Shown here: in pieces, positions 4,326-43,641 of the stretch
How positions within the stretch are numbered: position 1 is the stretch's first letter
Layout: the number at the start of each line of letters is the position of its first letter
NCBI GenBank assembly: GCA_024231215.1
Contig: JAAEQR010000099.1
Coordinates: 50,401 to 114,400, forward strand
Reading direction: 5' to 3'
From: PVC group bacterium
Lineage (GTDB): Bacteria; Omnitrophota; Gorgyraeia; B26-G9
Length of the DNA: 64,000 bases
Notes under the pieces: model-generated
Database searches by the model: none
What the model saw: the letters and a program-made list of their open reading frames with translations, nothing else
What the model was told of the DNA's origin: nothing
Translations under genes and position numbers: made by a program

Positions 4326-4357
4326 TAATTTAATTTGACAAAAAAAGGAGTCGTATT

Positions 4358-4981
4358 ATGAAAAAACTAACAATTATATTATTGGTGTTCGGATTCATAG
4401 CTATACCTTCTATGCAGGCTAATGCTCAGGAAATCTTCAGCCTGGTCCCGGACAAAACTACGGTTGATGTTGGCGAAACTTTCAATGTGGATGTTATATT
4501 CAATAATCCTCAAGGAACCCCGTTTATTGAGCTGTGGTCCTGGATACAGTTTGATCCACAATATCTTACGGTTGTTGATCCCGGTGAAGATGGAAGCTGG
4601 ATAACCTCTCCGGACACAAACATCTCTGATGCCGCATCTCATTCAAACTTCTCTTTTTCCTGGCATATAGACAACAAGGTTGATAATGTTTTTGGCGATA
4701 TCGACTATGCCGAAAGCGTTAGTACCAACGATCCCATTACCAGTAGCGGCACTTTTGCCTCAATAACATTTCAGGCACTTGAAGTTACAAATAATACGTC
4801 TATAGATTTCGTCACCGATGGCACCCCTATTAGAAATAGTCTTGTGGTAGGCGCTGACGGATTTACAAATATCTTAGACGATGCATTTGCTACGAATATA
4901 ACAGTTATTCCGGAACCAACAAGTATATTATTATTTGGTTTTGGATTATTAGGAATATCTCTTCACAGGCGAAAAAAATAA
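4358..4981 (+). CDS. PEP-CTERM-anchored secreted protein with a cohesin-like beta-sandwich domain
   Basis: Signal peptide. C-terminal VIPEPTSILLFGFGLLGISLHRRKK is a classic PEP-CTERM exosortase signal (PEP motif, TM helix, basic tail). The mature region fits the cohesin pattern: V.VGETF.V.V, W.QFDP.YL.VVD and GTFASITFQAL. The cohesin assignment is only moderate. Confidence 0.7.
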   Translation: MKKLTIILLVFGFIAIPSMQANAQEIFSLVPDKTTVDVGETFNVDVIFNNPQGTPFIELWSWIQFDPQYLTVVDPGEDGSWITSPDTNISDAASHSNFSFSWHIDNKVDNVFGDIDYAESVSTNDPITSSGTFASITFQALEVTNNTSIDFVTDGTPIRNSLVVGADGFTNILDDAFATNITVIPEPTSILLFGFGLLGISLHRRKK

Positions 4982-5073: not shown

Positions 5074-5637
5074 TCATTCTGAGGGGAGCGTTCCGGGGAT
5101 AATAATGCTAAGTACGCCATCGATCACTAATTTTGCCTGATTTTTATCGCTGAAATTTACCACCATTCTATCGAGTTTTATCAGTTGTTTACTGTCCCTT
5201 ATTTGAAGTTGTAATTTCAATAGTTCTTCAAAGGTCAATTCCATCTGTACATCAGCCATATACTTCGCATACATATCTCTTGTCTCAGGATTTTCGTGTA
5301 CAGCCAGCTTGGTTATCGAACCGCCGGATAAGCGAATAATATTTTCTGTCTCATGCAGCAAAATAGTTTTTATATCTTTCTCCTCCGCCTTCCCCAGTTT
5401 CAAGAAAGGCTTACATTGTTCATAGTCCGCGTATAGCTGGTCTTTGACAGCATGAATCGCCAAATATTCCTGGAGCCGCACCTCTGCGATTTTTATTTGA
5501 TCCTTCAAGATTTTTGACTGCTGACGCAGGCTTACAATAAAAACCCTTTCAAAAACAAACATTGCCAGAAGTATCGCGCAAATTCCGATAATAATTTTTT
5601 TGTTTTTTAACATCTGTATGCTTTTATTCTTAGCCAT
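5074..5637 (-). CDS. pilO: PilO-like type IV pilus alignment protein: N-terminal TM, coiled coil, periplasmic domain
   Basis: Bitopic topology and size typical of PilO. It immediately follows the pilMN fusion with a 5-nt gap. Confidence 0.55.
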   Translation of the reverse strand: MAKNKSIQMLKNKKIIIGICAILLAMFVFERVFIVSLRQQSKILKDQIKIAEVRLQEYLAIHAVKDQLYADYEQCKPFLKLGKAEEKDIKTILLHETENIIRLSGGSITKLAVHENPETRDMYAKYMADVQMELTFEELLKLQLQIRDSKQLIKLDRMVVNFSDKNQAKLVIDGVLSIIIPGTLPSE

Positions 5638-5642
5638 TATTT

Positions 5643-7052
5643 TTAAAGCTCCGCCAGAAATTTCACTTCAAAATTCACCAATTCCAGTCCTTTTATTTTT
5701 CGCTTACGAGTGTTCCGAGTCTCTACCTCTTTAAACTGTTTTGATTCTTCTAGTTTTGTAGTTAGACCAAATATGTCAGACAGCTGCTGCGCTGTACCTT
5801 TTAAAACCACGTTATTATCTGCATCAATGCTTAAGTTCGTTATCACCACCGATTCGCTCACTGCTTTTTGAAGTTGGAACAATACAAATAGGGGGATTTG
5901 GCGTTCTGCCAACAATTCCTTTGTTGTTTTTATTTTTTTTCTCTGATGCACAACTTCACCCAGTTGCTTTTCAATCACCGAAGCCTGTTCGTTTAGTCTT
6001 GCTAAATATGCCCGATTTTGTTGTTGGCGCCCTAAAAAGATAAAAAAGATAACCCCTAAAATATAAATCGATCCCAAACCAATAGTCATCAACTCTTTCA
6101 TCCTCCGACGAAGATCCTTGCGAATCTGTATCTCCGGCAAGGTAAAACTAAACTGCCTCTGTATATTATCAAAAAACAATGCCGCTACCCCGCTCACTGA
6201 AGCATCTTTGGGAATTGTTCTCTTTTTTGCCCGAAGGCATTTGTCCATTCCTGGGATTTTTACGCTTTGCACTGGGAATTCCAATTCTTGCTCAATACTT
6301 GGCGCCAATATTTCAGCAAAGGCTCCGCTTAAAAAAACCTGTGACGGCTTTGCACTCTGTTCTTCACTATTGAAAATTATTAAGGCCTGCCGAATATCAC
6401 CCATCAATCGATTTCTTCCTGTTTTTTCTTCTAATTGAATATTTTTAAAAGAAATGCTTCGCGAAAAAACTAACCGACCGCCTTTTAAAATAATAAGATC
6501 TGTAAAAAAAGTATCTACATCTAAAATTAAATAGACCTCTTCTTTGCTTATCTTCATTTTTGAGGTTTTTAATATAAGGTGATACAGCCCTTCGGAGCTA
6601 AACATTATGCTGTCTACAGGAAAGCCTGTCTTTTCGATAATCCGCATCTGCTTACGCATGATTTCTTTAGTAACAATCGCCACTAATATTCGCGAATACC
6701 CTCTTTCATCTTGTCCACATATCTGATAGCTGTAAAACATTTCTTCTTTTTTATACGGAACAATCCGGTTAATATGCAGCTCTACCATCTTGATCAATTC
6801 TTTTTTATCTTTGGACGGCAAGGACAAGTTTCTCACGGTAACAAAGTTACGAGGTAAAGACAAAGCTACTGAGGTAGGTTTATATTTGTTTTTCTTAAAA
6901 ACATCTATGATCGTATCTGTAATAGCCGCGTCATCAAGCCCGGCAATCCGTTTTACAATACAATCTGTAAATTTTGGCTGCGCGCCCATTTGATCCGCGG
7001 TTATTATTTTTAAATATTGCTCTCCGATTTCAATTCCGGCAAATAATTTCAT
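5643..7052 (-). CDS. pilMN: PilM-PilN fusion: actin-like PilM ATPase-fold domain, then a TM helix and a PilN periplasmic domain
   Basis: N-terminal LFAGIEIGEQYLKIIT matches the PilM start. A TM helix MTIGLGSIYILGVIFFIFLG follows, then a PilN-like coiled coil and C-terminal domain. Confidence 0.75.
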   Translation of the reverse strand: MKLFAGIEIGEQYLKIITADQMGAQPKFTDCIVKRIAGLDDAAITDTIIDVFKKNKYKPTSVALSLPRNFVTVRNLSLPSKDKKELIKMVELHINRIVPYKKEEMFYSYQICGQDERGYSRILVAIVTKEIMRKQMRIIEKTGFPVDSIMFSSEGLYHLILKTSKMKISKEEVYLILDVDTFFTDLIILKGGRLVFSRSISFKNIQLEEKTGRNRLMGDIRQALIIFNSEEQSAKPSQVFLSGAFAEILAPSIEQELEFPVQSVKIPGMDKCLRAKKRTIPKDASVSGVAALFFDNIQRQFSFTLPEIQIRKDLRRRMKELMTIGLGSIYILGVIFFIFLGRQQQNRAYLARLNEQASVIEKQLGEVVHQRKKIKTTKELLAERQIPLFVLFQLQKAVSESVVITNLSIDADNNVVLKGTAQQLSDIFGLTTKLEESKQFKEVETRNTRKRKIKGLELVNFEVKFLAEL

Positions 7053-7077: not shown

Positions 7078-8463
7078 TTATGCTGGCAAACTACCGATCA
7101 TATAAAACTTTTCTTCACTAATATGATCCACTCTGCCGCTTAAAATTTTCTGGCATCCGGATAATGTATCCTCCAAAGAAACATAATGTCCCTTTTTCCC
7201 TGTATAGCTTTCCACAACAAAAAACGGCTGGGTCAAAAAATTCTGCAGTTTCCTTGCCCGGTCAAAAATAACCTGTTCTTCATGTGTAAGCTCAGACTTC
7301 CCGATAATCGATACAATTCTCTGCAACTCGTCATAGCGCTGAAAATAACGCAATACTTCCTGGCTTATGCTATAATGTGCAGCCCCGATAATGTCCGACG
7401 AAATAAACGCGGAGCTTGATTCCAGCGGATGAATTGCCGGATACAAACCATGTTGTACGTATTCCCGGGACAATACCATAATCGAATCTAAATGGCTGAA
7501 TATGGTTACTACCGCAGGATCTGTTAAATCATCTGCCGGGACATAAACCGCTTCCACGCTGGTAATACTACCGTCTTCTGTAGAAGCAATGCGTTCATGA
7601 AATTCGCCAATTTCACTGGTTAATGTCGGCTGATATCCTGTCTCCGACGGAATCCTTCCCAGCAAGGCAGACACCTCGCTTCCTGCCTGCGCGAAACGAA
7701 ACACATTATCCACAAAAAATAATACATCCTGGCCATCTTCCCTCAACGATTCGGCAATAGTAACCGACGTTCTGGCGCTCTCAAATCTCGCTCCCGGAGA
7801 TTCATTCATTTGCCCGAAGACAAGAATAGAATTCTTTAATAGATCACGTTCTAAAAATTCATAATACAATTCATTCCCTTCCCTGATCCGTTCGCCAATC
7901 CCGCTAAATACACAAGTACCTTTTTGTTTATGAATAATATTATGGATAAGCTCTAAAATAATTATTGATTTGCCGCAAGCCGCGCCACCCAGAATGCCTG
8001 TTTTAGATCCTTTAACAAAAGGAAATAACAAATCAATAACTTTAACGCCTGTTTCTAGAATTTCATGCGTTAGCTTTTCACCTTTTTTTGTTTTTACATC
8101 TCTACGCATTTTAGACCTGTGTGTTGATAAAAATTTGTCAGCTTTCACCGGCCCTTTTTTGTCTATGGGCTTACCCATAACATTCAATAATCTACCATAT
8201 AAATATTTCGCTTCAGGAACCGTTAAACCCTTTCGAGTCCTTTCCACTGAAGTATTGCGACGCAGTCCATATGTAAAAGACAGCGCAATACATCGGCAGA
8301 TATTGTCCAGCTTATGTTCTATAACCTCTAAAACCACTTCTTCGTCACGATAATTTTTTGCCATAACGATTTCATGAATTCCCGCGATTGCTTTTTTGCT
8401 CGGGAATTGGACATCTACAACCGGTCCATATACAGCAACGATTTTACCAATATCTTCCCTCAT
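7078..8463 (-). CDS. atpD: F-type ATPase beta subunit, divergent P-loop
   Basis: Strong beta-subunit identity blocks: [30 protein letters not shown] and [13 protein letters not shown]. Walker A is GGAACGKS instead of GGAGVGKT. The DELSEED region reads SELTHEE. There is an N-terminal insertion. Confidence 0.85.
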
Positions 8464-9318
8464 TTATTTCTTCACCTTAATCCGCGCAGCAAATAATTCG
8501 CGAATTCGTTTATCTGCCAACGCATGTACACTTTTAAAATATTCTCTAGCTAACTTTCTATTAATTCGAGTTAGCTCCTGATAGCTTGCTTCTAAATGCA
8601 TAAGCCTGGCAGCCAATTCTGCCAGTTTACTAGAATATAGTATCTGACCCAAGCTAGATTCTAAATACAAACCTATCAATCCTTCGATAATACTTTGATC
8701 AGACGGCTCTGTAATTATTGCTTCCTTTGTTTTCTTCCTAACTTTCCCCTCTAATTCCGACATGGGAAAAGGCAGCAGCTGCCGCGTTTTTATTTCGCGC
8801 GCAGTAACTGAAATAAATTCAGCATACACAATAATCGCTTTATTAATTTTCCCGTCTAAATAATCACGAATTAAAAACTTTTTTAGTTTTCGCGCTTCAC
8901 TCAAAAAAGTCTTTTCTTTGACCCCCGGCAAGAACCTAAAAGACTCTTTTTTACCGCGAAAATAATGAGACCCCTTATCTCCTAAAACAATATAAGAATC
9001 TTCCGGGGTTTTTTTCTGACGTAAAGCAGCACTGATCAAAAGCATATTTAAGTCCCCTAAAAACCCTTCGTCAGAGGTAATTACCACAATGGTCTGAGGA
9101 GTCTCCTGTTCCCGCAACAGCAAAGGATGTATAGTGATCTTTTCCTGGCCCAGTTTAGAAAGAACTGAATATATTTCCCGGGGAAATCTTTCTTCTCCCC
9201 ACTGCTGCCGCTGAAACTGCCGCAACTGGATAGATGTCGCAATCTTCAGAATATTAATTATCTGATCTAAGCTTTCATTAAAGCTTAAACTATATTTAAG
9301 TTGGGAAAGTGACTTCAT
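8464..9318 (-). CDS. atpG: F-type ATPase gamma subunit
   Basis: 284 aa with N- and C-terminal helices. Sits between the alpha and beta genes as in atpAGD operons. Confidence 0.7.
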   Translation of the reverse strand: MKSLSQLKYSLSFNESLDQIINILKIATSIQLRQFQRQQWGEERFPREIYSVLSKLGQEKITIHPLLLREQETPQTIVVITSDEGFLGDLNMLLISAALRQKKTPEDSYIVLGDKGSHYFRGKKESFRFLPGVKEKTFLSEARKLKKFLIRDYLDGKINKAIIVYAEFISVTAREIKTRQLLPFPMSELEGKVRKKTKEAIITEPSDQSIIEGLIGLYLESSLGQILYSSKLAELAARLMHLEASYQELTRINRKLAREYFKSVHALADKRIRELFAARIKVKK

Positions 9319-9339: not shown

Positions 9340-10815
9340 CTAGGTTTTTGCTTTTTTCTTCTTAAAATACTCTATAAGTGCTACATCTAATTGTGTTTTT
9401 ACTATATCGGTCAAGGTTTTTTCATTTTCAATTGCAGTTACTAGATCCGGGTATTTCTTGCACAGAAATGGAAGTATCTCCTGTTTAAACTTGTTCCAAA
9501 GTTCAGGAGGAAGAACCTCCAAAATCTTCTTTTTAAACGCGTAAAAAAGAGCTACTTCCGCAGTTAACGCCAATGGATTATAATTCTCCTGAACAAACAA
9601 TTCTTCTAATACCTTGCCCCGGCGAATAATAGCCTGCGCTTCTTTAGAAAGTCCGGTACGCAAACGCATTAAACGCAGCATTTCCCGGTATTGTAGATAG
9701 TCCAAACGGATTCCTTCGCTTAATTCCCGCAACGCCGGACATTGGACTTTAGAGCCAAGACGTGATACAGAAAGGCCAATATCAATTGCCGGCTTAAACC
9801 CTTCCCGGAATAAATTATTATTTAAAAATATCTGTCCGTCGGTGATTGATACCAGGTTAGAGGGAATAAACCCGGTAATATCTCCCTGCAAAGTTTCTAC
9901 GATAGGCAAAAAACTCATAGTTCCACCGCCTAATTCCGCTTTTAATTTTGCGGCTCTTTCCAGTAACTGGGAATGAATAAAAAAGATATCTCCGGGATAT
10001 GCTTCTCTCCCGGGAGAACGTTCAAGCAATAAAGATATCTGCCGATATGCCCAGGCATGTTTGGTTAAATCATCAAAGACAACAACAACATCCCGGCCCT
10101 GATGCATAAAATATTCACCAATTGCCGCGGCAGTATAAGGAGCAATATACTGCTCTGCCGGAGAACTTGAGGCAGAAGAACAAACCCCAACAACGGTAGG
10201 CATTATATCGGTTTGCACTAGCTGATGAATAATCTTTTCAAATGTGGATTGAGACCCTCCGATAAAACAATAAATGCAAACCACATCTTTATCTCGTTGA
10301 TTAATCATCGTATCCATGGCAATACTCGTGCGTCCTGTCTGCCTGTCTCCGACGATTAATTCTCTTTGCCCTTTACCAATTGGAATAGTTAAATCAATAA
10401 TTTTTATTCCGGTTGATAATTGTTCAGATATGGGATCGCGCTCCATAATTCCCGGAGCTTGCCGAAAAACCGGATAACGATCTACCTCGGGAATAGAACC
10501 TTTATCGTCTACCGGCTGAGCCAGACAATCAACTACTCTACCCAAGAGTTTATTTGACACCGGAACCGCAAGTAATTCACTCGCGCTTTTTAAATAATCA
10601 CCGATTTTGATATCCGGCTCATCAGATAAAACAATAATAAATACTTCATTCGGATCAAACCCGATAACCACGCCCTTGGTCCCATCATTAAATTCTACCA
10701 GCTGCCCATAAAGACACGACGGCAATCCGTCTGCCTTAACAATCCCCTGGGTTATTTCTTTAATGCGGCCAACTTCCCTGATTTCTACCTGCGGTATTTG
10801 TATTTGCTTTTGCAT
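9340..10815 (-). CDS. atpA: F-type ATPase alpha subunit with Lys-to-Arg change in the P-loop
   Basis: GDRQTGRTSIAMDTMINQ versus the canonical GDRQTGKTA.A.D.I.NQ. Remaining alpha-subunit blocks are conserved. Confidence 0.85.
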   Translation of the reverse strand: MQKQIQIPQVEIREVGRIKEITQGIVKADGLPSCLYGQLVEFNDGTKGVVIGFDPNEVFIIVLSDEPDIKIGDYLKSASELLAVPVSNKLLGRVVDCLAQPVDDKGSIPEVDRYPVFRQAPGIMERDPISEQLSTGIKIIDLTIPIGKGQRELIVGDRQTGRTSIAMDTMINQRDKDVVCIYCFIGGSQSTFEKIIHQLVQTDIMPTVVGVCSSASSSPAEQYIAPYTAAAIGEYFMHQGRDVVVVFDDLTKHAWAYRQISLLLERSPGREAYPGDIFFIHSQLLERAAKLKAELGGGTMSFLPIVETLQGDITGFIPSNLVSITDGQIFLNNNLFREGFKPAIDIGLSVSRLGSKVQCPALRELSEGIRLDYLQYREMLRLMRLRTGLSKEAQAIIRRGKVLEELFVQENYNPLALTAEVALFYAFKKKILEVLPPELWNKFKQEILPFLCKKYPDLVTAIENEKTLTDIVKTQLDVALIEYFKKKKAKT

Positions 10816-10830: not shown

Positions 10831-11568
10831 TCAAAAAGTCAGGTTTTGTTTATCTTGACCCAGTTGCTGCACTGCCTTGCTGAATTTATTATGCAAACTG
10901 CCGTCAATAATAAATGAGCCAATCTCTATAATTAATCCGCCAATCATAGCTTCATCGATTACTTGTTCTATGGCTATTTTTTGACCTAGTTTTTCACTAA
11001 GCATTGTATTTAAACAATCTTTTTGTTGTTCTGTCAACGCGCGAATAGTAATTGCCTTTGCCTGCTCTATTTCAATCGGAAAACGTTCCTTGTCAATGCC
11101 CTTTATTATCTCAATAACTTCATCTATAAGAGAATGGTGCAATGTGTCTTGAGCATGAGAACTGAAGGTAAGACGCACAATCTCCAACGCATAACGCAAC
11201 GCCTGATGATCAAATTTTAGAAATAACTTATTTTTCAGTTTATCTACACGTTCTTTGCTTTCATTTATAATTTTATCTGCTTCTATCTGTCCTTTATCTT
11301 CTTGATTTTTCTGCAATATTTTGCCTATATTTACAGCTTCATCCGTAACGCGCTTTGCCTCCTGCTTAGCTTTTTCCACCCTCGCTGTGGCCTCTTCCTC
11401 TGCCTTAACCAATCCGGTCTTTAATTTCTCTTCAATGATCTCATTTTCTCTTTGCAATGATTGTAATCGCCGCAATGCAGTATTAACACTGCGCGCGTAA
11501 AAAAATCGCAAAGCAATCAGTATTGCAATAAATGTAACTATTTGAATTATAATTAATTGTGTGCCCAT
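10831..11568 (-). CDS. atpFH: F-type ATPase b subunit fused to a truncated delta (OSCP) C-terminal domain
   Basis: TM helix, long charged coiled coil, then an OSCP-like C-terminal motif GGLIIEIGSFIIDGSLHNKF. Start taken at MGTQ (11568), which abuts the c-subunit stop; the ORF-track start at 11631 is probably over-extended. Confidence 0.6.
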   Translation of the reverse strand: MGTQLIIIQIVTFIAILIALRFFYARSVNTALRRLQSLQRENEIIEEKLKTGLVKAEEEATARVEKAKQEAKRVTDEAVNIGKILQKNQEDKGQIEADKIINESKERVDKLKNKLFLKFDHQALRYALEIVRLTFSSHAQDTLHHSLIDEVIEIIKGIDKERFPIEIEQAKAITIRALTEQQKDCLNTMLSEKLGQKIAIEQVIDEAMIGGLIIEIGSFIIDGSLHNKFSKAVQQLGQDKQNLTF

Positions 11569-11569
11569 A

Positions 11570-11779
11570 TTATTTAAACAAGTTATACACCACAAGTAAC
11601 GCAAGTACTGCGATCGCTTCCGCGAATACAAACGCTGTGATCATAATTACAAAAATCTTAGGCGCCGCGCCTGGATTACGTCCTACTGCACGCACTGCAT
11701 TACGCCCAACCATTCCAATCACAAGTGCCGGGCCCATTGTACTTAAAAGCATAATTAAAGTTACGGTAAAATTCTGCAT
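11570..11779 (-). CDS. atpE: F-type ATPase c subunit (proteolipid)
   Basis: 69 aa two-helix hairpin. Polar loop GRNPGA. Conserved ion-binding Glu in helix 2 (FAEAIAVLAL). Confidence 0.8.
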   Translation of the reverse strand: MQNFTVTLIMLLSTMGPALVIGMVGRNAVRAVGRNPGAAPKIFVIMITAFVFAEAIAVLALLVVYNLFK

Positions 11780-11833
11780 AATTTATTTTTATCTACAAAC
11801 TATTGACCATGGACCATCGACTATTAACTATTT

Positions 11834-12061
11834 TCATCGTTCCACTAAAATCGTAAGCCGGTTATTTTCCATGCTCGCAACACCATCTGTCACGGAAAAA
11901 GAATCAGAGTCATTTATGGTAATAATGCCATTTTTTAGACGAGACAGGAAATTCTCATGCATGTCCAGTACGCAGAGCTCGCCCTCAACTGTGGGCAATA
12001 CTACCCTTACGGCCGATTTTTCATAAAGAATTTCTTTTGTATCTAAAATAGAAACATCCAT
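11834..12061 (-). CDS. atpC: F-type ATPase epsilon subunit, beta-sandwich domain only (75 aa)
   Basis: N-terminal beta-sandwich similarity (LPTVEGELCVLDMHENFLSRLKNGIITI). The usual C-terminal helical inhibitory hairpin is absent. The gene sits first in the operon rather than last. Confidence 0.6.
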   Translation of the reverse strand: MDVSILDTKEILYEKSAVRVVLPTVEGELCVLDMHENFLSRLKNGIITINDSDSFSVTDGVASMENNRLTILVER

Positions 12062-12093: not shown

Positions 12094-12122
12094 ATTATAA
12101 TCTCCCTGAGGATATTATTCAA
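12094..12122 (-). promoter_or_regulatory. Near-consensus sigma70 promoter (TTGAAT-17-TATAAT) driving the atp-pilMNO operon
   Basis: On the minus strand: TTGAAT (12122-12117), 17-nt spacer, TATAAT (12099-12094). Lies about 33 nt upstream of the epsilon start codon. Confidence 0.45.
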
Positions 12123-12290: not shown

Positions 12291-13106
12291 TTATTCCCCC
12301 TTATTCATGATATCTTCAATATCTTCAGCATTAATCTGCTGTTCTTCCTCTGCGGTATACTGTTCCGGAGCTAATTCTTCTTCTTTCGCCGCAGCATCTT
12401 CCTTAACTGAAGACTTCATCATCTGTGCCTGTCTTTGCCAGATAATATAAAGTGTCGTTGCCAATACCCCGAGAAACCCAACCACTGAAAAGAACACCTT
12501 CCAGATCGTAATTGCCGGCAAACGCTTCCCTTCGGTAAGAAAACTACGCGCTAATATCAAATCATTTTTCGCGGCTTCTAATAAATCAAGGTTTTCCCGG
12601 TAATTTGAAATATGCTGCTGGGGGTTTGCCGCGGAGAGGTTCTGTCTCTTAATGATCTTGTCTAGCTTTACTTCAATACTTTGTTTTAAAAACTGGGCGC
12701 GTTCCTCAAACTCAGTATTTTTAATAAAACTTATTGTCTTATTTATTTCTTTTCTTAAATTTTCGATCTCCGCCTCTGAAACCAGCCAGATATTTTTGAT
12801 TGTAACTTCGCGTTCAATTGTTTCTCCGGGAGCCAATTCGTATTCTCCAAAAACCTTATACGCCCCCTGCTGAGTATCATAAGTCAGGTTAAAATCACCT
12901 CTATCAATGATATCTTCCGGAGTAACTTCTTTCGGTAAATGCGCCTGTAATGTCATGCTCTGCGTATTTGTCTTCGACGGGTTAACCCCAAGAAGTTTTA
13001 GCGTAATTTTTGTTTGAACCGCATATACTGTAGCCGCAAAACAAAAAACACTAAGACACAACATCCCCCAAAACAACAGCTTCTTAAATCCATTTAATAC
13101 ATTCAT
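12291..13106 (-). CDS. Bitopic membrane protein of unknown function
   Basis: Signal-anchor N-terminus, periplasmic region of about 200 aa, a second TM helix, and an acidic cytoplasmic tail. Lies 17 nt downstream of the giant gene on the same strand. Confidence 0.6.
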   Translation of the reverse strand: MNVLNGFKKLLFWGMLCLSVFCFAATVYAVQTKITLKLLGVNPSKTNTQSMTLQAHLPKEVTPEDIIDRGDFNLTYDTQQGAYKVFGEYELAPGETIEREVTIKNIWLVSEAEIENLRKEINKTISFIKNTEFEERAQFLKQSIEVKLDKIIKRQNLSAANPQQHISNYRENLDLLEAAKNDLILARSFLTEGKRLPAITIWKVFFSVVGFLGVLATTLYIIWQRQAQMMKSSVKEDAAAKEEELAPEQYTAEEEQQINAEDIEDIMNKGE

Positions 13107-13122: not shown

Positions 13123-16100
13123 TTAAAACTCATACCAAACCTGACTCATCGGCTTATCACTGATATTCTCAATCATCTGATTGTTCAGCTCAAGCATTGC
13201 TTTCATTTCCTGCGTCTTATTTTTTAGATATTTTATATCTTTTTTCTTTTCTGCCGCCACTTCCAAGCGATTTTCTATTCCCACACTTTCCAGCTTTCCA
13301 AATTCTTTTATCTGAGAACCCATATCTGAAAGCTGTTTATAAATTATATTCAACTCTTTAGACATACCCGATCCCTGTTTTGCTTCGTTGAGAAAATCCT
13401 TGGCTATTCTGGTAAAAGATGTTTCAATCAATCCAACCTGATTATTCAAGATATCCACTATCCCGCCAATATCACTTAATCCAGAAGTCGCGCCTAAAAT
13501 TGCCGAGGTCTGGCCAGCGATATCGTCTACTGTATTACGAACAACTGTGATTGTCAAAGAATCAAGCGTACCCCGGGTTTCTTCCGAACATATGATCGTG
13601 TAATCACCAATCCCCCATGCCGAGTAAAACTTGACCGGATATTCATAGATACCCGTAGTCCCCATTTCCACCATGCTTCCCTTAATGATGCGCTGTACGT
13701 TCTTTACATCATACACATCTATTTTTGGAGACATCCCGGAATAAGTCTGATATCTTACATTTATCTCGTCCCCGCTTTTTGCCTGTTTTTCTCTGTTTAA
13801 AATCTTTGATTTCATGGTTGTCTGCAACTCATCTTCTGCCGCGGCTAAAGAACCTTCTAAACTTTCACGCGTAGCCGATAGTTCTTCTGTTAATGCTGTG
13901 GTTGTTTCTTCCATGGTCTCTGTAAGATTATCCGTTGCTTCTTCCAAGGTGCCTTCTAAGGAGTCCCGGGTATCTTCCAGTTCTGTGATCATCGATTCTG
14001 TTCCTTCTCCCACAGACTCCTCGATCTGCGCAACAGACGCGGCCAGTTGCGTCGCAGTTTGCGTAAAGAACTCGTATTGCAATATCTCTGAACCCACATC
14101 AATATTCGCACTAGATGTATAGTCTCTGCCTCGATAAAGCACTGTCAGTGTGGCCGGGTATACATACCCTGCTTCAAATCCCGTGCCAGGCAATGTAAGT
14201 GTATACATACCGTTCTCATTCGGAGCATTTGCTGAGACATTATTACGCACAGTTGTTCCATCCGGAGTATAAATACTCAACACTGCCGGCCCCATATCCG
14301 CACGTTCTAAGGCATTTGTTCCTACCAGTTTTCCTTTTCTCTGCAAAGAACCAACCGCACTTAAAGTATCACTTCCCGGGCTAAAACTGTATGTCAAAAT
14401 CGCTTCCCAGGTAACCTGCGCGGATGCTGAGTTTTCCAAATATATATTTACAATATAAGTGTCTGTCCCGGATTTCGGAACAACCCAGGTAACACTATTA
14501 TCGATAAAATTTGTCTTCGAGAGAAACGTTGTATACGTAGCATACGGATATGATGCTGAACGAGTAATAGCTGAATTAAGTCCGGAGTCATTCCATCCCG
14601 TACCCGGCTCATTTACATTCACATCCTGCAAATGCTGTAATGTATCATAATCCAAAATATTAAAAACAACCGAAGCATATACAATATTAAAAACCGCGTC
14701 ATTAACATCAAATACCGTAGAATCATCCGGATCTGAAACCCGAACCATAGCCTCAGTTGTCTGTGCATCCGGTAATATCCAAACATATGATCCAATATTA
14801 TCTACATTCGCCGCGATTAGATTCCAATTCAAACCATTATCCGTACTATAATCTAGTTTTATTTTTGCGATCGTTCCTCGAGTCTGCCACATGACTGTAT
14901 GATCTGATTTAGCAACCCAATCTTCATCACCATTCGGAACATTAATCGTAAACCCACCTCTTATCCGGAAAAATCCGGCCGATTGATTTGTTATCTCACT
15001 CCGATTACCGTCCGTAATACGCAGCTTCAACGTCGGACCGGTAAGAGCATCATCCGGAATATCCCAGGTATAAAGCCCGTCATTTGCTTCTCCCACGGCA
15101 ATTATCCTTCTTGTCGCAAAACCATCCCCGGACATATCAATAACCAGATTATCCGAAATAGATAAACCTTCCCAGGTCCAGGTTATTGTGGTCATATCTC
15201 CTAACACAAATTCTTCTCCGCCATCCGGAGCAGTAACATCAAATGTCGGGATCGGAATAATTCTAAAAAACTCGTCCGAGACATCTGTACTTACCGGACG
15301 ATTCCCGTCTGTGAGTTTAAATAAAGCATTATTAGTTACGTCATCCGGAACATCCCATGTATATTCCCCGTCATTCAACTCTCCTGATCCAATTACAAAA
15401 TAAGTAGAACCTCCATCAGGAGAATATTCTGCAACCAGATTATCGCTTATTGATCCCTCAGTAGTCCAAGTCGCCGGAGCCTGGTCTGCTACGGCCCAGA
15501 CTTCTCCTCCGTTGGGTGCAGTTATTGTAATTAACGGATCTGCTATAGCAAACACATCATCTGAAACATCTTCGTTCGAAGGCCTATCCGCATCAAAAAC
15601 CTTTACCAAACAAATGGCACTTACATCATCTGGAATTGTCCATGAATACGCGCCCATATTTGCCGCACCGGTTGTAATGTCCTGATATACAGTTCCTCCG
15701 TCAGATGAATATTGAACAGTTAAGTTATTGGATATCAACCCGCCGTTATCTTCCCATGTAACATCTTGTATGGTTCCTACTCGCCAAATCTCGCTACCGT
15801 TCGGCGTAAGAATAGTAAGCTGCGGTATTGGTAAAACTGTAAACATTCCGTCTGACCTGTCCCAAACTACCGGCCTGGTATTATCTGTTATTCTTACACG
15901 CATACTTGCGGAGACATCATTTGGAATCGTCCAATTATGGCTTCCGCTATTGGTTGTCGATCCAATTATTGTATTAACGTCTGAAATAAAATTATCTTTT
16001 GAATATTCAATAAGCAAGTCATTGCCCACGCTTCCGGTATTATCCCAGGTGATTATTTCTGCATCTGATACAGTCCAAAGTTCGCCGCCATTTGGCACCG

Positions 16101-19100
16101 TCACTCTAATCACCGGATACGCAATCGCAAACGGAACATCCGACATATCAGATATAGCCGGGGTGTCATTATCTGTAACTCTTATTTTTGCGGTAATTGA
16201 ATAATCATCCACCACAATCCAATCATATGTACCATCATTAGTTTCAAAGTTCGCAATTAAATTAATATCACTGCCAAAATTGTCTTTAGAATATTCAATG
16301 CGCAAGTTATCACTTACGCTTCCTAAAGAACCCCAGGTGATTTCCTGAGCCGTACCAATCGCCCAGCTTTCACCGCCATTAGGCGCAATAATATTTACAT
16401 ACGGCAGTCTAATCGCAAAAACAGAATCAGATTGATCTGTAGTCGCAATTCGTGTCGCGTCAAATATTCTGACCAAGCAATTGGTTGATAAGTCATTCGG
16501 TATTGTCCAAACATAATCTCCGTCATTTGCTTCTGCGCTGGACACAGTATTCCACGCTCCGCCTCCGTCAGAAGAATACTCTATAGTTAAGTCATCGCGA
16601 ATCGCTTCATCTGTATTGCCTTCGGATGTCCAATTAATTCCATGCGTGGTTCCTACAATCCATTCTTCTGCACCATTCGGGGAAGTTACTGTAATTGTCG
16701 GCGCAACAATACTAAACACAGCATCCGACATATCCCAAACTGTAGCCCTGGCATTATCTGTAAGTCTTACCAATACCTGGTCGGAAAGATCATCTGCCAC
16801 ATCCCAGGTGTATGTCTGATCATTTGGCTCTCCTGTTGCAATCGTATTCCAAGCCACCCCGCCGTTGCTGGAATATTCCAGCAACAGATCATTTGTAACC
16901 GCACCCAAGAATGTCCAGGTAATTTCGTAATCGCCTGTTGCATACCATGTCTCTGCCCCATTAGGAGAAGTGATTGTTACCGCAGGAATTGTGATTTGGA
17001 AAACATCGTTTGAAACATCAACAACCAATGCGTCATTCTCATCCATGACCCGAATAAGCGCTTCTATTGTTTCTACATCTGCTACTGTCCACGTATATAA
17101 ACCATCATTAGTTTGCTGGTTGCTAATTAGATTCCACGATCCGCCATTATCATCCGAGTAATAAATCGCCATCTCATAATAATCAGCGCCGCCGGATTCT
17201 AATTTTTGGCCATAAGATTCCCAGGTGATATCATACTCTTCCCCAATGGCCAATACTTCTCCGCCGTTTGGATCAAGCATCGTGACTATTGGATAAGGAA
17301 TAACCGTAAATGCTTCAGATATCCCTGTAACCTGAGTCCATGCATTATCCGTAATTTGTACCTGTACTATATTTGAATCTATGGCGTCCGGAATCGTCCA
17401 TGCATATATACCATCACAAGCTTCATTATCCGCGATAGTATTAAAAATTAATCCATCTGTTGTATATTCAAACAGTAAATCATCTGTTACCGTTCCAAAA
17501 ATCGTCCAAGTAATATCATGGATATCTGCAGACACCCATGTCAATCCGGATACCGGGGATGTAATCGTAATATAAGGAAAAACAATCGAGAAATCAGCAT
17601 CTGACATATCCCAGATAATGCTCTGGGTATCTCTGCCGCCAAGAATCGAATCTTCTCTTATTCTTACTTTCACAGTTGTAGAAATATCTTCCGGCACTGT
17701 CCAGTCATATGTCCCGCTAATCGTATCATTTGCATCCGAACCACTAGGAGTTCCTATACTTGTCGTAATAATCGCAGTTTCCGTACTAAAATTATCTGTT
17801 GAATAATCAATAATCACATTATTCACAAACTGCGTAGAATTGGTTGCCCAATTGACTTCATATTGATTACCAACAATCCATTGTTCCGCACCATTCGGTG
17901 CCCCAACGATTAATATTGGCTGTGGTACAATGGCCCAAACCGCGTCTGATTCATCTACCACATCGGTATTATCCGCATCGTAGATTTTCAACAATACTTC
18001 ATCTGATGGATCATTTGCTATTGTCCAGTTAAAATTCCCTGTATTTGGACGCTGGGTAGAAGCAGCTATCCAGGTTGATCCATTGTCCGGAGAATATTCT
18101 ATGGTCAGATTATCATTTACTGTTCCAGTTGAAGCCCAGGTAATCGTATGCTGTCTGCCTGCTTCCCAGATGTCTCCTCCGTTCGGAGAAGTAATGATCA
18201 AGCCCATGATTTGGAAAATAGCATCCGATTCATCGCTAACATTTGGAAATTCTACCGAGCTCACCCGGACCAAAGCATTAGGCGATGCGCTATCCGGCAC
18301 TGTCCAGCCATGACTACCGTCATTAGCTGTCGAAGCAATCACTTCATTCCAACTGCTTCCGGTATCCGCAGAGTATTCTATTTGTACATTTGAAGCTGCT
18401 CCATCAACGCCCTCTGATGTCCAGGTAATAGTATGGGACGATGCAACCGCCCATTGTTCTGCTCCATCAGGAGAGCTAACATTGATTTCCGCTCGGATAT
18501 AATCAATGTCTATACTATCTATCACCGGGGTGCTCTCCCCGTATGAATATAAGGTTGTTTTATACTGAAGATATCGATCATCCAAACAATCTTCATTTAA
18601 GGTATTGATTGCTTCTGCGCCAGCAGAGTCAAAATAATAACTCGGCGGACTCGCTAAGGTAATTGTTACTTCATCCAATTCCGGGGTATTTATTCCGTCA
18701 TCAGTATGTAAATACGCGCGGTAATAAAAATCTCCATCCGGAAATTGTGATTGAAAATTAGTTAAGTTTGCATTAATCTCTGCCGCGGTATTAGTATTCG
18801 CATAACCAAAATCAACCTTTGCCCAACTACTTCCATTATGCCAATACCAATTATATCCGTCCGCGGAAACTTGATAGCCTACTTCTGTCCCTGCGGGTTC
18901 AGTCACAACATCCTGGAAATTAACCAGATTCCCTTCGTAAAAAACACCGATTATCGGCTGAATTACAGGGTTATCATCATAGTAATTAGTAAGGCTGTGC
19001 GTGTTGGCCGGGTGTACATACGTATCTTCAGCGTCCTGAGCCATCCCGACAGTATTATTTTCTAAAATTGCCCATTCATCCGTATGGGCCTGCTCACCGC

Positions 19101-22100
19101 TATCGTGGTGCACTATATGCGGCTTTAAATTGCTCTCCGAAGAATATGAAGATTCATAAAGCAATGTCCATGTGCTAGAATCGACAATGCGATAGTAATA
19201 GTCTGCTCCCATGCTCTTTAACACAATGCGAATTTCATACCATGTACCCGGAGAATAACTACCCACACCTTGCCTATAGCTACCATCTTCATAAATATGA
19301 AAATTCCCGTTATCAAAATATATCGCATGCGGCATATCCTGATAACTTGCACCTCCAGCATTACTTTTCCAGCCGATCATTGTCCGAGAACCAGAATCAG
19401 CTTTTATTTTCGCGCAAAACTCTATGTTTGATCTAGCATAGAAATTATTAGTATTAAGATAACAATCCCAGTCATCACTGTTATTCTGTAATGTAACATA
19501 TTCATTCTGCGTTACTGTTCCTCCTCCATACATAAACGTTGATCCCGCTATTGTTGTGCCATGGAAATTGTGAACAAACACAGCGATTATGCCTTTGGCG
19601 CTCGCGCTTAGATCACTTGCTCCGGAAGCCCCAGGATTTCCATAATACAAATATATCGTTTTATCAGCTAGGGCGGAAAAAGAAGGTATTTTTGTGTAAA
19701 CCATAGCTTTTTTTGAGACAAAATCAAAGCTGTCAAGATAGTAATTTAATACTGTAGTATCGTCCGAATCTACAATCCTAATATCTCCTCCGTCATTTTT
19801 TACATTACTCCAAAACTCATGCCAGTTGTCCAGCTTTAACTCTACCAGCTGATTAGTTATATCTGCCGTTGTAAAATTGGTTACTGTAATCGGAATTTTA
19901 TACGCCCACGCTGCTAACCCTGGACATGTGCCAGCTTCTTCCTCCATAGAAAAATATGTTTTTATATACTTATTTAGAGTTAATGGCATACGTTCTGTAG
20001 CAGATACATACTGTATACAGCTTCCATATCTTGGCCCATATTTTTCCACATAAGCCTCTCCCGCGTTAAGCCCCTTGCGGCCAATCATAAGATATTTAGA
20101 ACGATAGGCTAGCCCGCTCAACAGCGCATCGCTTGCCCCAAAATTCTTAAGCTCATTTTTCAAAGAGGTGTTATTATATATATTATTTCTCGGTTCATCA
20201 TAAGTGGTAACAATAATTAATGTATCATCGGGCAATCCCGCTAAATACGCTTCCATTGCGTCTGCTTGCGCGCTATCATTGTGACAATCATATTGCATTG
20301 ATTCCACCCAATTTAGATCAGCATCCAATCGGGTAACTGCCCAGCTTATAGTTGTTGTATGCCTTAAGGTTCCATCAACATATACATAATGATCTCTTGG
20401 CCCATCATCGCTTCCAGCTGACGAAATATTAAGATCCCCCACATTAATAATAGTATCGTTGCTATCCGATGCCGCACTAGCTGAGCCATATAATAAGTGG
20501 ATAGTTTTTATCTCATCTATTGCAATTGTTGGAATTTCAACAAAAATAACCGCAGTTTTTTCTGCATAATTAAACAACTCCAAACAATACTCTAAAGTTT
20601 GCGTACCATCATGAAATCTAATATCATCTCCGTCAGTCTGGACATTAGCCCAGAATTGAAGGTTTGAAAAAGGTATCTCTACTTTGACCAAAACATCTGT
20701 TCCCGCTTCTCCACCTGTATTATCTAAAACAATTTTATTAGCATAAGAAAAATCCGGCAACCCGGCAAATAAATCTCCATCTTCAAACTCCACGCCACCC
20801 TTAGAAGGATATTCCGCAGCACTGTTGCCGTAATACAAATAGATAGTTTCTGAAGATTCCGCGGCAATAAACGGAATTTTTGCGCACACTTCCGCCTCTG
20901 TATTAGCATAATCAAATGTTTTCAAAAATGATTCTAAAACTGTGCTATCGTCAGAATCAACTACACGCACATCTTCCCCATCAATTTTTACGTTCTTCCA
21001 AAACTCATGCCAGTTATCTATCTTTATATTAATAATTTCATCGGTTAAATCAGTTAGCCCGGAATTTGTTATTGTAATAGGTAACCTGTACTGCCAGCCT
21101 GAAAGAGCAGGGGAGCTGGCTAGTTCTTGTGCAACTGAAAAACAAGCAAAAGCCCCTCCTCCTAAAACAATATTATCTACCCCAAAACTCTCATCATAAT
21201 CCCCTCCGGAACTTAAGTTAGACGTGAATCTAAGCGTTAAATCTCCACCTGGGTGATCAAATGTAACTTTATATGCCCTGCCAAGATAATCACTTCCTGA
21301 GCGTGTAGTTATATTACCTATATTTTGAGCTGCGGTAAACTGATACGTATTCCACACCAAGCCACCATTCGCATAAAGATAGCCTCGTTCACCGTCCCAG
21401 GAATCCATCCAATAATAATCAAAAGTCACCTCATAACTACCCGCCGGGGCATTGCTTTTCGTATACATTGTATACTGCCCCTCTCCGCCATACTTTCCCA
21501 TCATTCCATGCCCGCCAGATGTATATGTCTCCGGATCAGAACTGCCCACATTATCTGTCCACCCAGTATAATTAGGATAAGACCATCTATTGGCAATCGT
21601 TGAATCACTCTCTGAAATTGCCGAAACAGAACCATAAAGCACGTAAATTGTTTGTATGGAATCCGCTGAGAGCAACGGTATTTTAACATCGATGCTTATA
21701 CTTTTGCTGGCATAATCAAATGTACTTAAGTAATACGATAATTTTATACTCCCATCATAAAATCTGATGTCACTACCCTCTGATCGTACATTGTCCCAAA
21801 AATGAGTATTTGAAGGGAATATCTTAAGTGATACCAATTCATCTGTTTTCTCCACACCGCCCGTATTATCAATAATTACCGCTTGCGCATGTTTAAAGTC
21901 TGCTAACTCCAACTGAATTTTTGCGGTTCCGGCACTTACTTCTATTTTGCTGGAATAGGCATAATCTGCCTGCATAGAATAATCATTACCTAAAACCTGA
22001 GCATCCGCAATCCCCAGCCATTCTGTCCAGGAAATATTATCTGCCGAGGTTCTAAGCTGTAATCGAGCATCTGTACCTAGAGGAAGTGTCTCCTGCCAGG

Positions 22101-25100
22101 TAAGATCCAAAAGTCTGCTTGTAGCAAAAGTAGTATCATAAACAGAAGATATCAGCATCTGAGAAATCGGGTATTTCTCCCACTCAATTCGCATCTCTTC
22201 GATTGCTGGGCTTTCCAATAAATTATCGGTTGAAAAAGTTATTTTGTATTGCAAATATTTTGCTGTGTCCGGACACGCCGCAGATGTGCTCAAATCCGCT
22301 CCATTAGCCACATCAGCAATATTAAACCATTCCGAGGTATCAGATAAATCTGTTTCATTTCCCGCGCGAAAAGATACAGTCGCGCATTGGATATCATTAA
22401 AATCCCAGCTAATATTGCCCCAGCCGGAATGATTGCCAATCTCTTTTATTTTTGATGTATAATTTCCAAAACAAAACGCATAATATTTAGCAAATTTTCT
22501 TCCTCTGCCCTGGGTCGCGTAAAAATATTCTCCGTCCGCCCAAATCAAAGTCCCGGGATGCCTGATATTAAAAGAAGCAGGGGTAAGCTCTTCCCATAAA
22601 TTATTCTCCACATCATATCGCAGAAAAACATATGAACCAGACCAGTCCCACCAAGACGAACCATGAATCAAATATAAATAATTTCCAAACCCCGGATAAA
22701 TAGCTTCCGAATGCCCCGTATGAAGAGGCACCGGAGCCGGAGTACGCACACTCCAACTACCGCTTCCTATATGATATCTGTATAAATTTGATGAACGATT
22801 TCCAGTCATCACGTACAAATAATCATCGCTTCCCGGATATACAACCTGCCCCCCATATCCTACATATTGCGGCGTATCATTAAGCACAGACCAGGAATCA
22901 TCCGCTAAATCATATTGCCAAAATGTATTTGATTCGCCTCTTAATATATACAAGTAATCACCATAATGACATATGCTATTCCCAACTTCAAATGGATCCG
23001 GCGGGGGAGATAATTCTATCCATAGATCCGCAGCAACATCATACCGGTAAAAACTTGCCAGGCTATTGCCTCCGGTAACATAAATTGAAGGCTGTCCCTG
23101 GTATTCAACAACTCTTATTGTTGTATCTGTTTGATCAAATGTTAGGGGAGGATCAGCTAATGTAGACCAAGTATTAGCTATTGTACTATATCTGTGAAAA
23201 GCATCTCTGTTTAAATAATAAATATACCCTTTATACCCGGCAAATGAGCAATCTTCATTCATGTCCTCGGGTAAAAATGACGGCAAATCATATGTATTTT
23301 CTGTCACATGATAGCGCATAAAATAACTTCCCCATTGATAATTAAAAATATAAAACCAGGGCTTGCCTACAGTCACTATAGACGCCTCATAACTACTTGT
23401 TGTGATCGGTAATTTTGCCAACTGTTCCCACAAATCTTGCGTAATAGAATAACGGTATAAATATTCGCTTGTTGCTCTCGGGATACTGTAAATATAATCT
23501 CCGGATCCCGGATAAAACAAAACGCCCCCGGAACCGGTTGTTTCCACTGTCTCTCCCATGCCAGTTTCATCTCCTACCTGTGTCCGGCTTAGCCAGGTAT
23601 CTACGCTAGGATCATATTCATGAAAAGTTGACTCATCATCTCCGGGCATTAAATATACCTTGCCCTGCGCATATACTAACCCATTAAGCCAGTCATCATG
23701 CGCCCTCGGAGCATCCGCAAAAGATGACCAATAATCTGAACTATTATAAACAACAAAATTTGTCGAACCCCATCCACCCATCATAAATATCCGGTCATTA
23801 TCATTATCCGCGGCCACTTCCGCGCCGCGCCAAAAACGCAAAGATGATTCCGCGCATTCAATCCAGGTTTTGGTTGTAATATCATATCGATACATCTCGG
23901 TCGAACCACGACCCTTAGTAATATAAATAGAATTCGTCGCTGTCAAATACGAAGCTTTTGCCCCAGGAGCCAGCACAAAAGGCACCCGGATTAAATCTGT
24001 CCATCGATTTTGATCCGCATTATATACCCAAAAATGAGAAGGGCAACTAGACTCATCTCCATGAATAACATAAATATTATTATTAGCATCGGCCACCGTC
24101 ATCCCCATTTGATTATCATGGCGATCTATAACCGGCTCATTCCATTGTCCTGTAGCTGGATCATACTTCCAAAAATTATTATATCCATAATTAGCAATAG
24201 CAAATATCGCTGTGTCTGTTCCGGTAATACAACTCCTTGCCTGATGAAATGGTGTCGGCTCAAGAATATCCCAAGCATCTGTATCCATGTTATAGCGTAC
24301 AAACCCATAACTATATCCAATGCTATCCCAATCGGCCGACAATCCATATACATAGTTATTTGCGGCGCTTGTATGTGCGATGGAAGGACCTGCGTCCATA
24401 TGAAATCTGAAATTATTTGGAGCATCAGTTACTTTTGTCCAAACCCCTAAGTTATTACCATCGCTATCTAAGTCATCCTGATCACTAATATCATCTTCTA
24501 TGGGACCATACTTATAAAAATTCCGGCTCCATTGGCCACGACAAGCATAGATATAAGTATATCCATCAGATTCGGTATAATTAGAATAAACCATAAAACT
24601 TCCATCCATACTATCTGTTGTAGAATCCATTGATTCCCACGTTTCACCAGCAACATCATACCGATAAAAATCATATGTATCTGTGCCGCGCAAAGCATAC
24701 ATATAATCCGTACCACCAACGTTTATCCCGATCACCCCAGAACCATAATCAACATTCTGCGGAAAATCAGTTAATGTTTCCCATGCATCACTGCCCGGAG
24801 TCTGCGAAACATCATAACGCCAAAAATCATCAGACTCAGCCCCTCTTAAGCAATAAACATACCCGTTCAAATACCCTAATCTATTCCCTCCATGTCTAAT
24901 ACCACTTGGAGCATGTGCTAATTGTTCCCATTCATTATTCGAGATTGAATACCTAAAAAACGTGGAACTATCCTCTGCCGGCACATAATAAATATAATCA
25001 CCGATCCCCGGATAACAAATATTTATACCATACCCCCTGTCTGTCGGCGCTTGAACTAATGTACTCCATTTCCCATTAACAATATCGTATCTCCATGGAC

Positions 25101-27429: not shown

Positions 27430-27525
27430 TATGCAGCTCCTTTCGCTGGTAATTTCATCAGTCAATAGCTAATAGTCTATGGTTTTGATTTTTCTTTGTA
27501 ATGCTATTAACCCTAGACTTCTTCC

Positions 27526-31609: not shown

Positions 31610-31611
31610 CA

Positions 31612-40129: not shown

Positions 40130-40149
40130 TTTTCCCAAGTAATTAAACT

Positions 40150-43620: not shown

Positions 43621-43641
43621 CTTTTTTTTGTCTCCTTTTAT

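Follow-up and report, generated by a model that had tools for sequence, protein, structure and literature searches.

A pilus-linked F-type ATPase operon of Omnitrophota and the PVC group with reduced epsilon, delta and alpha subunits and no linked subunit a

We analyzed an F-type ATPase operon in a 64-kb stretch of a PVC group bacterium contig (JAAEQR010000099.1), the whole of which is referred to here as the window. The operon is a member of a large group of F-type ATPase operons in Omnitrophota and the PVC group with a fixed, reduced parts list, in which the epsilon subunit is cut down to its beta-sandwich, the b subunit is fused to the C-terminal part of delta, and no gene for subunit a accompanies the other subunits. 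Genes of a type IV pilus-like machine follow the beta gene in almost all of the informative relatives. The family is published and barely characterized, and the window copy is an atypical member of it, being without PilB and PilC. Judged from its genes, the complex has in our estimate about an even chance of being a non-chemiosmotic, ATP-hydrolysing rotary module that works with, or is docked in, a pilus-like envelope machine.

The genes lie on the minus strand in the order epsilon, c, b-delta, alpha, gamma, beta, PilM-PilN and a protein in the position of PilO. They are tightly packed, with successive intergenic spacings of 54, 1, 15, 21, 0, 25 and 5 nucleotides (nt), and all eight open reading frames (ORFs) are intact. 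The first three genes make up the region flagged by an earlier reading of the sequence without database searches (hereafter the sequence-only reading). The operon features are as follows, in window coordinates and amino acids (aa), with the basis of each assignment in parentheses.

12061..11834, minus strand: epsilon subunit, 75 aa, beta-sandwich domain alone, first gene of the operon (PF02823 and PDB alignment)
11833..11780, minus strand: epsilon-c spacer, 54 nt, suspected site of a missed epsilon continuation (three-frame stop check)
11779..11570, minus strand: c subunit, 69-aa hairpin with a membrane glutamate (FAEAIA) and an RNP polar loop (Pfam PF00137, E = 7.8e-12)
11568..10831, minus strand: b-delta fusion, 245 aa (start shared with homologues; Pfam ATP-synt_B, weak, and OSCP; AlphaFold2)
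11565..11167, minus strand: b-like part of the fusion, residues 2-134, an N-terminal membrane helix in one helix of ~130 residues (AlphaFold2 secondary structure)
11073..10861, minus strand: remnant of the delta C-terminal domain, residues ~166-236, with an invariant IDGSL motif (OSCP, PDB, Foldseek)
10815..9340, minus strand: alpha subunit, 491 aa, without the N-terminal delta-binding helix, Walker A GRT instead of GKT (NCBIfam atpA and alignments)
9318..8464, minus strand: gamma subunit, 284 aa, divergent (Pfam PF00231, E = 1.9e-35)
8463..7078, minus strand: beta subunit, 461 aa, catalytic motifs intact (NCBIfam atpD and motif alignment)
7052..5643, minus strand: PilM-PilN fusion, 469 aa, 25 nt past the beta stop (Pfam PilM_2 and PilN; NCBIfam pilM)
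5637..5074, minus strand: PilO-position protein, 187 aa, last gene of the operon (homologue found after PilMN in related loci)

The b-delta gene was assigned the ATG at 11568 (MGTQLIIIQ...), where all homologues begin. The longer ORF first listed for it (11631..10831, 266 aa) starts at a TTG and overlaps the c gene, and this TTG is not the true start. The 187-aa protein had no match in Pfam or NCBIfam.

For comparison, 19 genome loci, 80 metagenome loci and one locus from a complete genome were collected and deduplicated to 96 unique loci; individual loci are cited by number (L001 and onward). The genome loci came from a scan with a 10-sequence alignment. The fusion protein itself had 58 homologues of ~240 aa, and those with a named source are labelled Omnitrophota or PVC group. 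A b-delta profile search returned 272 clusters at 50% identity (E ≤ 1e-30), of which the best 150 are nearly all 230-260 aa long and match end to end.

The epsilon subunit had been described in the sequence-only reading as a beta-sandwich of 75 aa with no C-terminal hairpin, and database comparison agrees. Residues 1-75 cover positions 1-79 of the 80-position Pfam profile ATP-synt_DE_N (PF02823, E = 3.7e-16), a Pfam scan of the 75-aa protein gave no match to a C-terminal domain, and alignment to PDB sequences placed the protein on residues 5-78 of cyanobacterial epsilons of 134-138 aa. In bacterial enzymes the C-terminal hairpin contacts the acidic DELSEED surface of beta and is inhibitory. 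A frameshift or downstream exon at 11780-11833 had been raised as a way to restore a full-length protein. The 54-nt spacer at that position has stops in all three frames and is too short for a hairpin of ~50 aa, which excludes such a rescue. The comparison with relatives that had also been proposed gave epsilon lengths of 74-97 aa (median 75.5) over 66 unique sequences, none with a C-terminal domain and none running more than 6 residues beyond the C-terminus of the window protein; the variation in length is due to a loop insertion. An AlphaFold2 model from the single sequence had a mean predicted local distance difference test (pLDDT) score of 50.6 and contained only beta strands, and a homology search with epsilon alone matched nothing other than the query itself.

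Short epsilons are also found outside the family. Two SAR202 Chloroflexota operons, L032 (13967-14209) and L033 (13965-14207), encode an 80-aa epsilon consisting of the beta-sandwich only, and these operons are otherwise ordinary, with a, c, b, delta, alpha, gamma and beta all present. NCBIfam likewise curates short-epsilon equivalogs of 88-102 positions (for example PRK13449, 88 positions). Our literature search on naturally short epsilons turned up nothing usable.

The second claim of the sequence-only reading, that b is fused to a C-terminal part of delta and that the N-terminal alpha-binding bundle of delta is missing, was likewise borne out, the retained part amounting to ~70 C-terminal residues. 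In Pfam, the protein matched ATP-synt_B weakly and OSCP only over profile positions 102-171 of 172 (E = 3.1e-13). Residues ~167-236 align with residues 109-171 of E. coli delta, 106-175 of Bacillus PS3 delta and 383-444 of the mycobacterial b-delta protein in PDB. In the AlphaFold2 model (pLDDT 88.7), residues 2-134 form one long helix, residues 137-157 a short return helix and residues 169-242 an alpha/beta domain; the six-helix N-terminal delta bundle is absent. The C-terminal domain superposes on delta/OSCP C-terminal domains with root-mean-square deviations of 1.2-2.8 Å (Foldseek). Conservation is highest in the membrane-proximal 46 residues, which hold 9 of the 23 invariant or near-invariant columns, and in the delta C-terminal domain; this pattern fits a stator with a specific, putative membrane partner. 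The window and each related locus contain a single b-type ORF.

The window fusion is 100% identical to a protein of a metagenome-assembled genome (MAG) listed at NCBI as 'PVC group bacterium'. A second b-delta protein, P0002 (NCBI GY853_14945; 241 aa, 38% identical), is encoded outside the window. Because it shares the GY853 locus-tag prefix, this MAG seems to hold two paralogous clusters.

The loss of the delta bundle has a counterpart in alpha. In the E. coli enzyme, the N-terminal domain of delta binds the N-terminal helix of alpha. Most family members have 13-17 residues before the alpha beta-barrel, compared with 26-31 in canonical alphas, and the missing piece is the SEISELIK-type helix. 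Residue 8 of the window alpha aligns with residue 21 of PS3 alpha in the PDB alignment, an offset that agrees with loss of the helix. The docking helix and the delta domain that it would bind have thus both been lost, one along with the other. The divergent members L018 and L020 have ~28-30 residues before the barrel, and these N-termini are longer yet unrelated in sequence.

The remainder of the head is well conserved. Alpha passes the NCBIfam atpA equivalog model (539.6 against a cut-off of 484.45) and PRK13343 (571.6 against 554), and beta passes atpD (562.5 against 462.85). Alpha matches family loci with E-values of 1e-170 to 1e-224 and canonical loci with E-values of 1e-113 to 1e-125. Beta retains Walker A, the catalytic glutamate (GERIREGNE), and Walker B with the arginine that follows it, all conserved across the family, as is the arginine finger of alpha. 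By these conserved motifs, the alpha3beta3 head is predicted to be catalytically competent. The Walker A motif of alpha reads GDRQTGRTS, with a Lys-to-Arg replacement, solely in the window, L002 and L003, and GK[ST] in the other family members; the nucleotide site of alpha affected by this replacement is the non-catalytic one. Beta carries a basic insertion of 7-9 residues before the nucleotide-binding domain, and its DELSEED loop reads SELTHEE in the window and EELSKxD in relatives. Its best F1 beta match in PDB (483 bits) is an engineered hybrid whose core domains are ancestral; among natural canonical betas the scores reach 469 bits, and the beta of the Mycoplasma G1-ATPase scores 348 bits.

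The rotor and stator genes are more divergent, with gamma, c and b-delta each falling below their NCBIfam family cut-offs (for gamma, 92.9 against 194 bits). The c glutamate of the window (FAEAIA) aligns with the canonical Asp/Glu and is retained in 64 of 68 unique family sequences. The other four have V, A or I at this position (L015 1039-1248, L020 6709-6942, L111 897-1121 and L112 7507-7731) and represent at least three lineages; in L112 the carboxylate is lost from a cluster that is otherwise complete. The RNP loop of c, which contacts gamma and epsilon, is invariant in all 68 sequences, which argues that the c ring still binds the gamma-epsilon foot.

A subunit a is required by ATP synthase, and its gene had been reported missing from this operon by the sequence-only reading. 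We searched with a profile built from six canonical a subunits of control loci fetched in the same genome scan; as positive controls, it recovered every canonical a, including the distant ones of SAR202 and Gastranaerophilales. No subunit a was detected in the 64-kb window (best E = 2.3) or within 10 kb of the operon in the 96 unique related loci (best E = 1.2, with 101 sources totalling 953 kb translated in six frames). Within the surroundings covered by this search, the operon is thus not accompanied by an a gene. Several places where a could have been concealed were also inspected. In L003, c and b-delta are separated by 0.8 kb of masked sequence (N); in L016 and L017, the space between b-delta and c is taken up by a gene for a peptidase MA-like protein; and a 271-aa neighbour of the operon has a single C-terminal transmembrane segment and no conserved arginine. 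A hydrophobicity scan of the window and L001-L020 for other polytopic ORFs yielded only PilC-type and unrelated proteins, and PilC-type proteins are the sole polytopic membrane proteins inside the clusters.

The association with pilus genes is nearly as uniform. The usual order, all on one strand, is a 271-aa protein, a peptidase MA-like protein, epsilon, c, b-delta, alpha, gamma, beta, PilB (T2SSE), PilC (T2SSF), PilM-PilN, the 187-aa protein and pilins. PilB is the first recognized gene past beta in 32 of 34 informative unique loci, at a distance of at most 400 nt in 29. The only exceptions are L019 and the window. In the window, PilM-PilN stands directly after beta, and no homologue of PilB, PilC, pilins or the peptidase MA-like protein was found anywhere in the 64 kb. 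Epsilon has been relocated between PilB and PilC in L016 (17350-17589) and L084, and in L070 it immediately follows PilB, where the fetched contig ends. Considering these loci together, the short epsilon and the b-delta fusion are fixed traits of the family and not local damage or chance.

We observed ORFs of ~348 aa related to PilB upstream of some clusters (L010 1475-2518, L014 2598-3644, L049 and L068). Their size suggests that they may be PilT-like, in which case the pilus machine of those loci would have its own second ATPase.

Upstream of epsilon, the window contains three further features of note:

12122..12094, minus strand: promoter-like TTGAAT-17-TATAAT site preceding epsilon (agrees with the consensus at 10 of 12 positions, a sequence match only)
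13106..12291, minus strand: 271-aa exported protein with a C-terminal membrane anchor, a conserved upstream neighbour (homologues upstream of epsilon in many loci)
26421..13123, minus strand: giant surface-type protein, 4432 aa, with Kelch, DUF2341 and Ig-like repeats (Pfam)

The 229-nt leader upstream of epsilon matched no Rfam family, and its RNA folding z-score was -2.1. The 271-aa protein and the C-terminal part of the giant ORF form one polypeptide in L112 (79-7257), L107 (2841-8372), L109 (4-5016) and L019 (50-2410), and the fused gene lies just upstream of epsilon wherever the fetched contig includes epsilon. In L112, residues 279-2133 match residues 2642-4418 of the giant ORF (E = 5e-92) and residues 2153-2377 match the 271-aa protein (E = 5e-32). 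Such a Rosetta-stone fusion connects the ATPase/pilus cluster with the giant surface protein, and the 4432-aa protein is probably part of the same system. A peptidase MA_2-like gene with an HExxH motif is another conserved neighbour, usually between the 271-aa gene and epsilon, and is absent from the window:

L001 7742-8536; L003 482-1294; L016 10648-11523; L017 7369-8139; many metagenome loci: peptidase MA_2-like genes

Further upstream, the window encodes a secretin (29831-31624) and TPR proteins. An IS200-like (Y1 transposase) ORF at 26506-27465 separates the giant ORF from the TPR and secretin genes, and may be related to the rearranged state of the window cluster.

The remaining observations concern other parts of the window. 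A likely chromosomal origin region (41179-49309) carries dnaA, dnaN, gyrB and gyrA on the minus strand, with a change in the sign of the GC skew near 48-50 kb. At 1665-4981, a glycoside-hydrolase-like protein with a dockerin adjoins a cohesin-domain protein with a PEP-CTERM anchor, and a second PEP-CTERM protein lies further upstream at 36410-37213. At 38681-41179, a 201-aa ORF without annotation (40150-40755) lies between the genes for an RtcB RNA ligase and an archease.

For the non-chemiosmotic rotary module to which we give about an even chance, the following mechanism can be proposed. Beta would hydrolyse ATP, and a rotor of gamma, epsilon and the c ring would turn against an alpha3beta3 head held by b-delta. 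With no a subunit there would be no ion path, and energy would not be stored as an ion gradient; it would instead be used mechanically by the co-operonic type IV pilus or type II secretion (T2S)-like machine, into which the complex may alternatively be docked. The missing epsilon hairpin, delta bundle and alpha helix fit this proposal, being parts that serve regulation and head attachment in a synthase. The subunit composition, its conservation through the family, the intact catalytic residues, the lack of a near the operon and the synteny are direct observations, from which we infer the direction of catalysis, rotation itself, the partner of the b-delta helix in the membrane and the physical coupling to the pilus. 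A bias toward hydrolysis had also been expected in the sequence-only reading, from the short epsilon and the b-delta fusion together with the missing a gene, and we find partial support for it. While a non-synthase, hydrolysis-type role is still the best reading, the short epsilon and the fusion are not proof of it, since short epsilons occur in a-containing operons and b with a partial delta occurs in N-ATPases, so that neither is diagnostic of direction. More weight on function is carried by the lack of a linked a gene and by the synteny with pilus genes. Going further, we tentatively suggest, as a distinctly less probable elaboration, that an F1-c-ring motor without an a channel could be an extra motor or torque-bearing anchor of a pilus/T2S-like machine through which predatory or episymbiotic Omnitrophota would handle giant surface proteins, with the C-terminal domain-bearing b-delta protein docked to PilN/PilO-type proteins instead of a.

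Several observations weigh against a rotary module uncoupled from ions, and much of this evidence would suit an ordinary ion-translocating F-type ATPase with a encoded elsewhere, acting mainly as an ATP-driven H+/Na+ pump in a fermentative cell, with a dispensable epsilon brake and an incidental or regulatory pilus synteny. We regard this enzyme as unlikely, although it is the strongest competitor. Its best support is the c glutamate, whose retention in 94% of sequences, within an otherwise normal c hairpin, would not be expected of a ring that never binds ions. The atpA/atpD scores of alpha and beta are canonical, and a short epsilon and a fusion of b with partial delta are both known from ion-translocating enzymes (L032 and L033 for the former, N-ATPases for the latter; PMC2881411). 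Subunit a may also lie elsewhere, our search having spanned 10 kb on either side of each locus and 64 kb of a 188-kb contig, and split atp loci are known in several phyla (PMC4154653). On the other hand, none of the 96 unique loci has a within 10 kb, even though its usual companions c and b are always in the operon; the c carboxylate has been lost in at least three lineages, once within an intact cluster; the linkage to PilB is near-obligate; and one Omnitrophota species in the excerpted part of a published KEGG Orthology (KO) table has alpha and beta but no K02108, by thresholds that missed c too. Two further points count against the rotary module: pilus clusters already have PilB and sometimes a PilT-like ATPase, leaving an additional motor without an obvious job, and the window copy has no PilB, PilC or pilins and carries the alpha Walker A Lys-to-Arg replacement.

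These last features of the window, together with gamma, c and b-delta scores under the family cut-offs and the apparent second paralogue in the same MAG, could also be explained by a complex that does not turn, such as a static membrane-anchored scaffold or nucleotide sensor of the pilus-like apparatus, or by a decaying duplicate in the window that, compared with its closest relatives, has lost PilB, PilC and pilins. We hold this to be improbable, since the eight ORFs are intact and tightly spaced, the catalytic residues of beta, the arginine finger of alpha and the RNP loop of c are conserved family-wide, and the Lys-to-Arg replacement falls in a non-catalytic site. It is also very doubtful that the operon encodes the housekeeping ATP synthase of the phylum, with a short epsilon and fused b-delta as lineage quirks of no functional meaning. 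The sequence-only reading had allowed for this by asking whether these features are the norm of the phylum's housekeeping enzyme; they are indeed the norm across all related loci, but of a pilus-linked family rather than of a demonstrated housekeeping enzyme. The canonical scores of alpha and beta would suit a synthase, and a 2026 preprint reports alpha and beta, with no gamma recognizable by KO thresholds, in most complete Omnitrophota genomes, which fits a divergent operon of this type being the only F-type set in many of them. However, the a subunit that a synthase needs is not linked, the operon is embedded in pilus genes, and the same MAG apparently has the paralogous P0002. The literature, moreover, describes a separate 'respiratory' F-type clade in the phylum (PMC10066038), V/A-type ATPase subunits are reported for 70-99% of the dominant class once the order Pluralincolimonadales is set aside (PMC10066038; 2026 preprint), and one species in the excerpted KO table carries separate a, b and delta. 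Both the synthase and the scaffold or decaying duplicate are less likely than an ion pump with an unlinked a.

If the enzyme truly has no a, it would be a natural F-type ATPase with a c ring and an anchored stator but no ion path. The rotary mechanics of F1-c would then be separated from chemiosmosis, raising the question of the use of a c ring that does not carry ions. The operon link to PilB/PilC/PilMN and to a giant adhesin-like protein makes the complex a candidate power source for attachment or predation in ultra-small, host-dependent Omnitrophota. There is also a consequence for annotation. Because alpha and beta pass the standard thresholds, metabolic reconstructions will record 'F-type ATP synthase present' even where the organism may not be able to conserve energy with this enzyme.

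Among known systems, the closest is the non-respiratory ('symbiotic') F-type homologue described beside type IVa pilus clusters in Omnitrophota by Seymour et al. 2023 (PMC10066038), who suggested that it serves attachment to host cells or movement on them. The loci share an Omnitrophota/PVC origin, pilus genes within 10 kb and giant ORFs nearby; unlike the usual loci of this type, the window copy has no PilB and PilC after beta. That study, based on alpha/beta phylogeny and co-location only, grouped alpha with Mycoplasma type 2/3 enzymes and set both alpha and beta apart from the respiratory clade, whereas here alpha and beta score higher on the canonical atpA/atpD models than on Mycoplasma models. 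Its main text does not treat epsilon, delta or subunit a, and a search of its supplements by terms found no description of them. The subunit anatomy reported here (an epsilon N-terminal domain, b fused to the delta C-terminal domain, an N-truncated alpha, a retained c and an absent a) appears to be undescribed in the literature that we searched.

The type 2 (gliding G1-ATPase) and type 3 systems of Mycoplasma are extra non-respiratory ATPases of the alpha/beta/gamma type with a surface or motility role. The likeness is that of a non-respiratory F1-type ATPase recruited to a surface or motility function. To our knowledge, their clusters have no homologues of c, b/delta or epsilon, all of which are present in the window. 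Membership in these types was rejected, the scores against the MMOB1660/1670 and MSC_0619/0618 models lying below their cut-offs (431 vs 600, 429.5 vs 850, 340.7 vs 520 and 392.8 vs 570).

N-ATPases (atpDCQRBEFAG; Dibrova et al. 2010, PMC2881411) resemble the window operon in lacking atpH and in having an AtpF of ~246 aa composed of b and the C-terminal part of delta, and were proposed not to synthesize ATP. Residues 6-229 of the window b-delta align weakly with positions 8-238 of the 246-position AtpF model. N-ATPases differ from the window operon in gene order, include subunit a, AtpQ and AtpR, carry Na+ ligands on c and have no pilus linkage; the window operon ORFs include no a, AtpQ or AtpR and run epsilon-c-b/delta-alpha-gamma-beta. 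The alt_F1F0 models also excluded membership, with scores under the cut-off for alpha (506.9 vs 750.5), beta (488.7 vs 752), b (29.1 vs 224.7), gamma (16.8 vs 282) and epsilon (16.4 vs 100).

In mycobacterial AtpFH (for example PDB 7jg5, 8j0s and 9vkp, chain d), a single polypeptide likewise has b N-terminal to delta, and the C-terminal domain of the window protein aligns with its residues 383-444. That protein, however, is ~445 aa long, has a complete delta with its N-terminal bundle, and works alongside a second b subunit and subunit a, whereas the window protein has 245 aa and keeps just the C-terminal domain of delta, and its operon has one b-type gene and no a. The N-ATPase fusion of b and delta has been likened to the V/A-type subunit E and to FliH (Pallen 2006, as cited in PMC2881411). 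The window protein shares with them a single long helix ending in a small alpha/beta head-binding domain, and the whole model resembles V-ATPase E chains with query-normalized TM-scores of 0.38-0.47. It differs in having its own membrane helix and a C-terminal domain that is delta by sequence, whereas E and FliH are both soluble proteins and E forms a pair with G; the window protein gave no FliH family match in Pfam or NCBIfam.

The SAR202 operons L032 and L033 share the beta-sandwich-only epsilon but keep a, a separate b and a full-length delta. Measured against canonical F1Fo, the window operon has alpha and beta that pass the thresholds and the c carboxylate, and it is without a linked a, a full-length delta and the epsilon hairpin, the last being common rather than universal. 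The enzyme is unusual in having a c ring and an anchored stator with no linked a, and in the occasional loss of the c carboxylate, the joint loss of the delta N-terminal domain and the alpha helix, and a near-obligate linkage to pilus genes.

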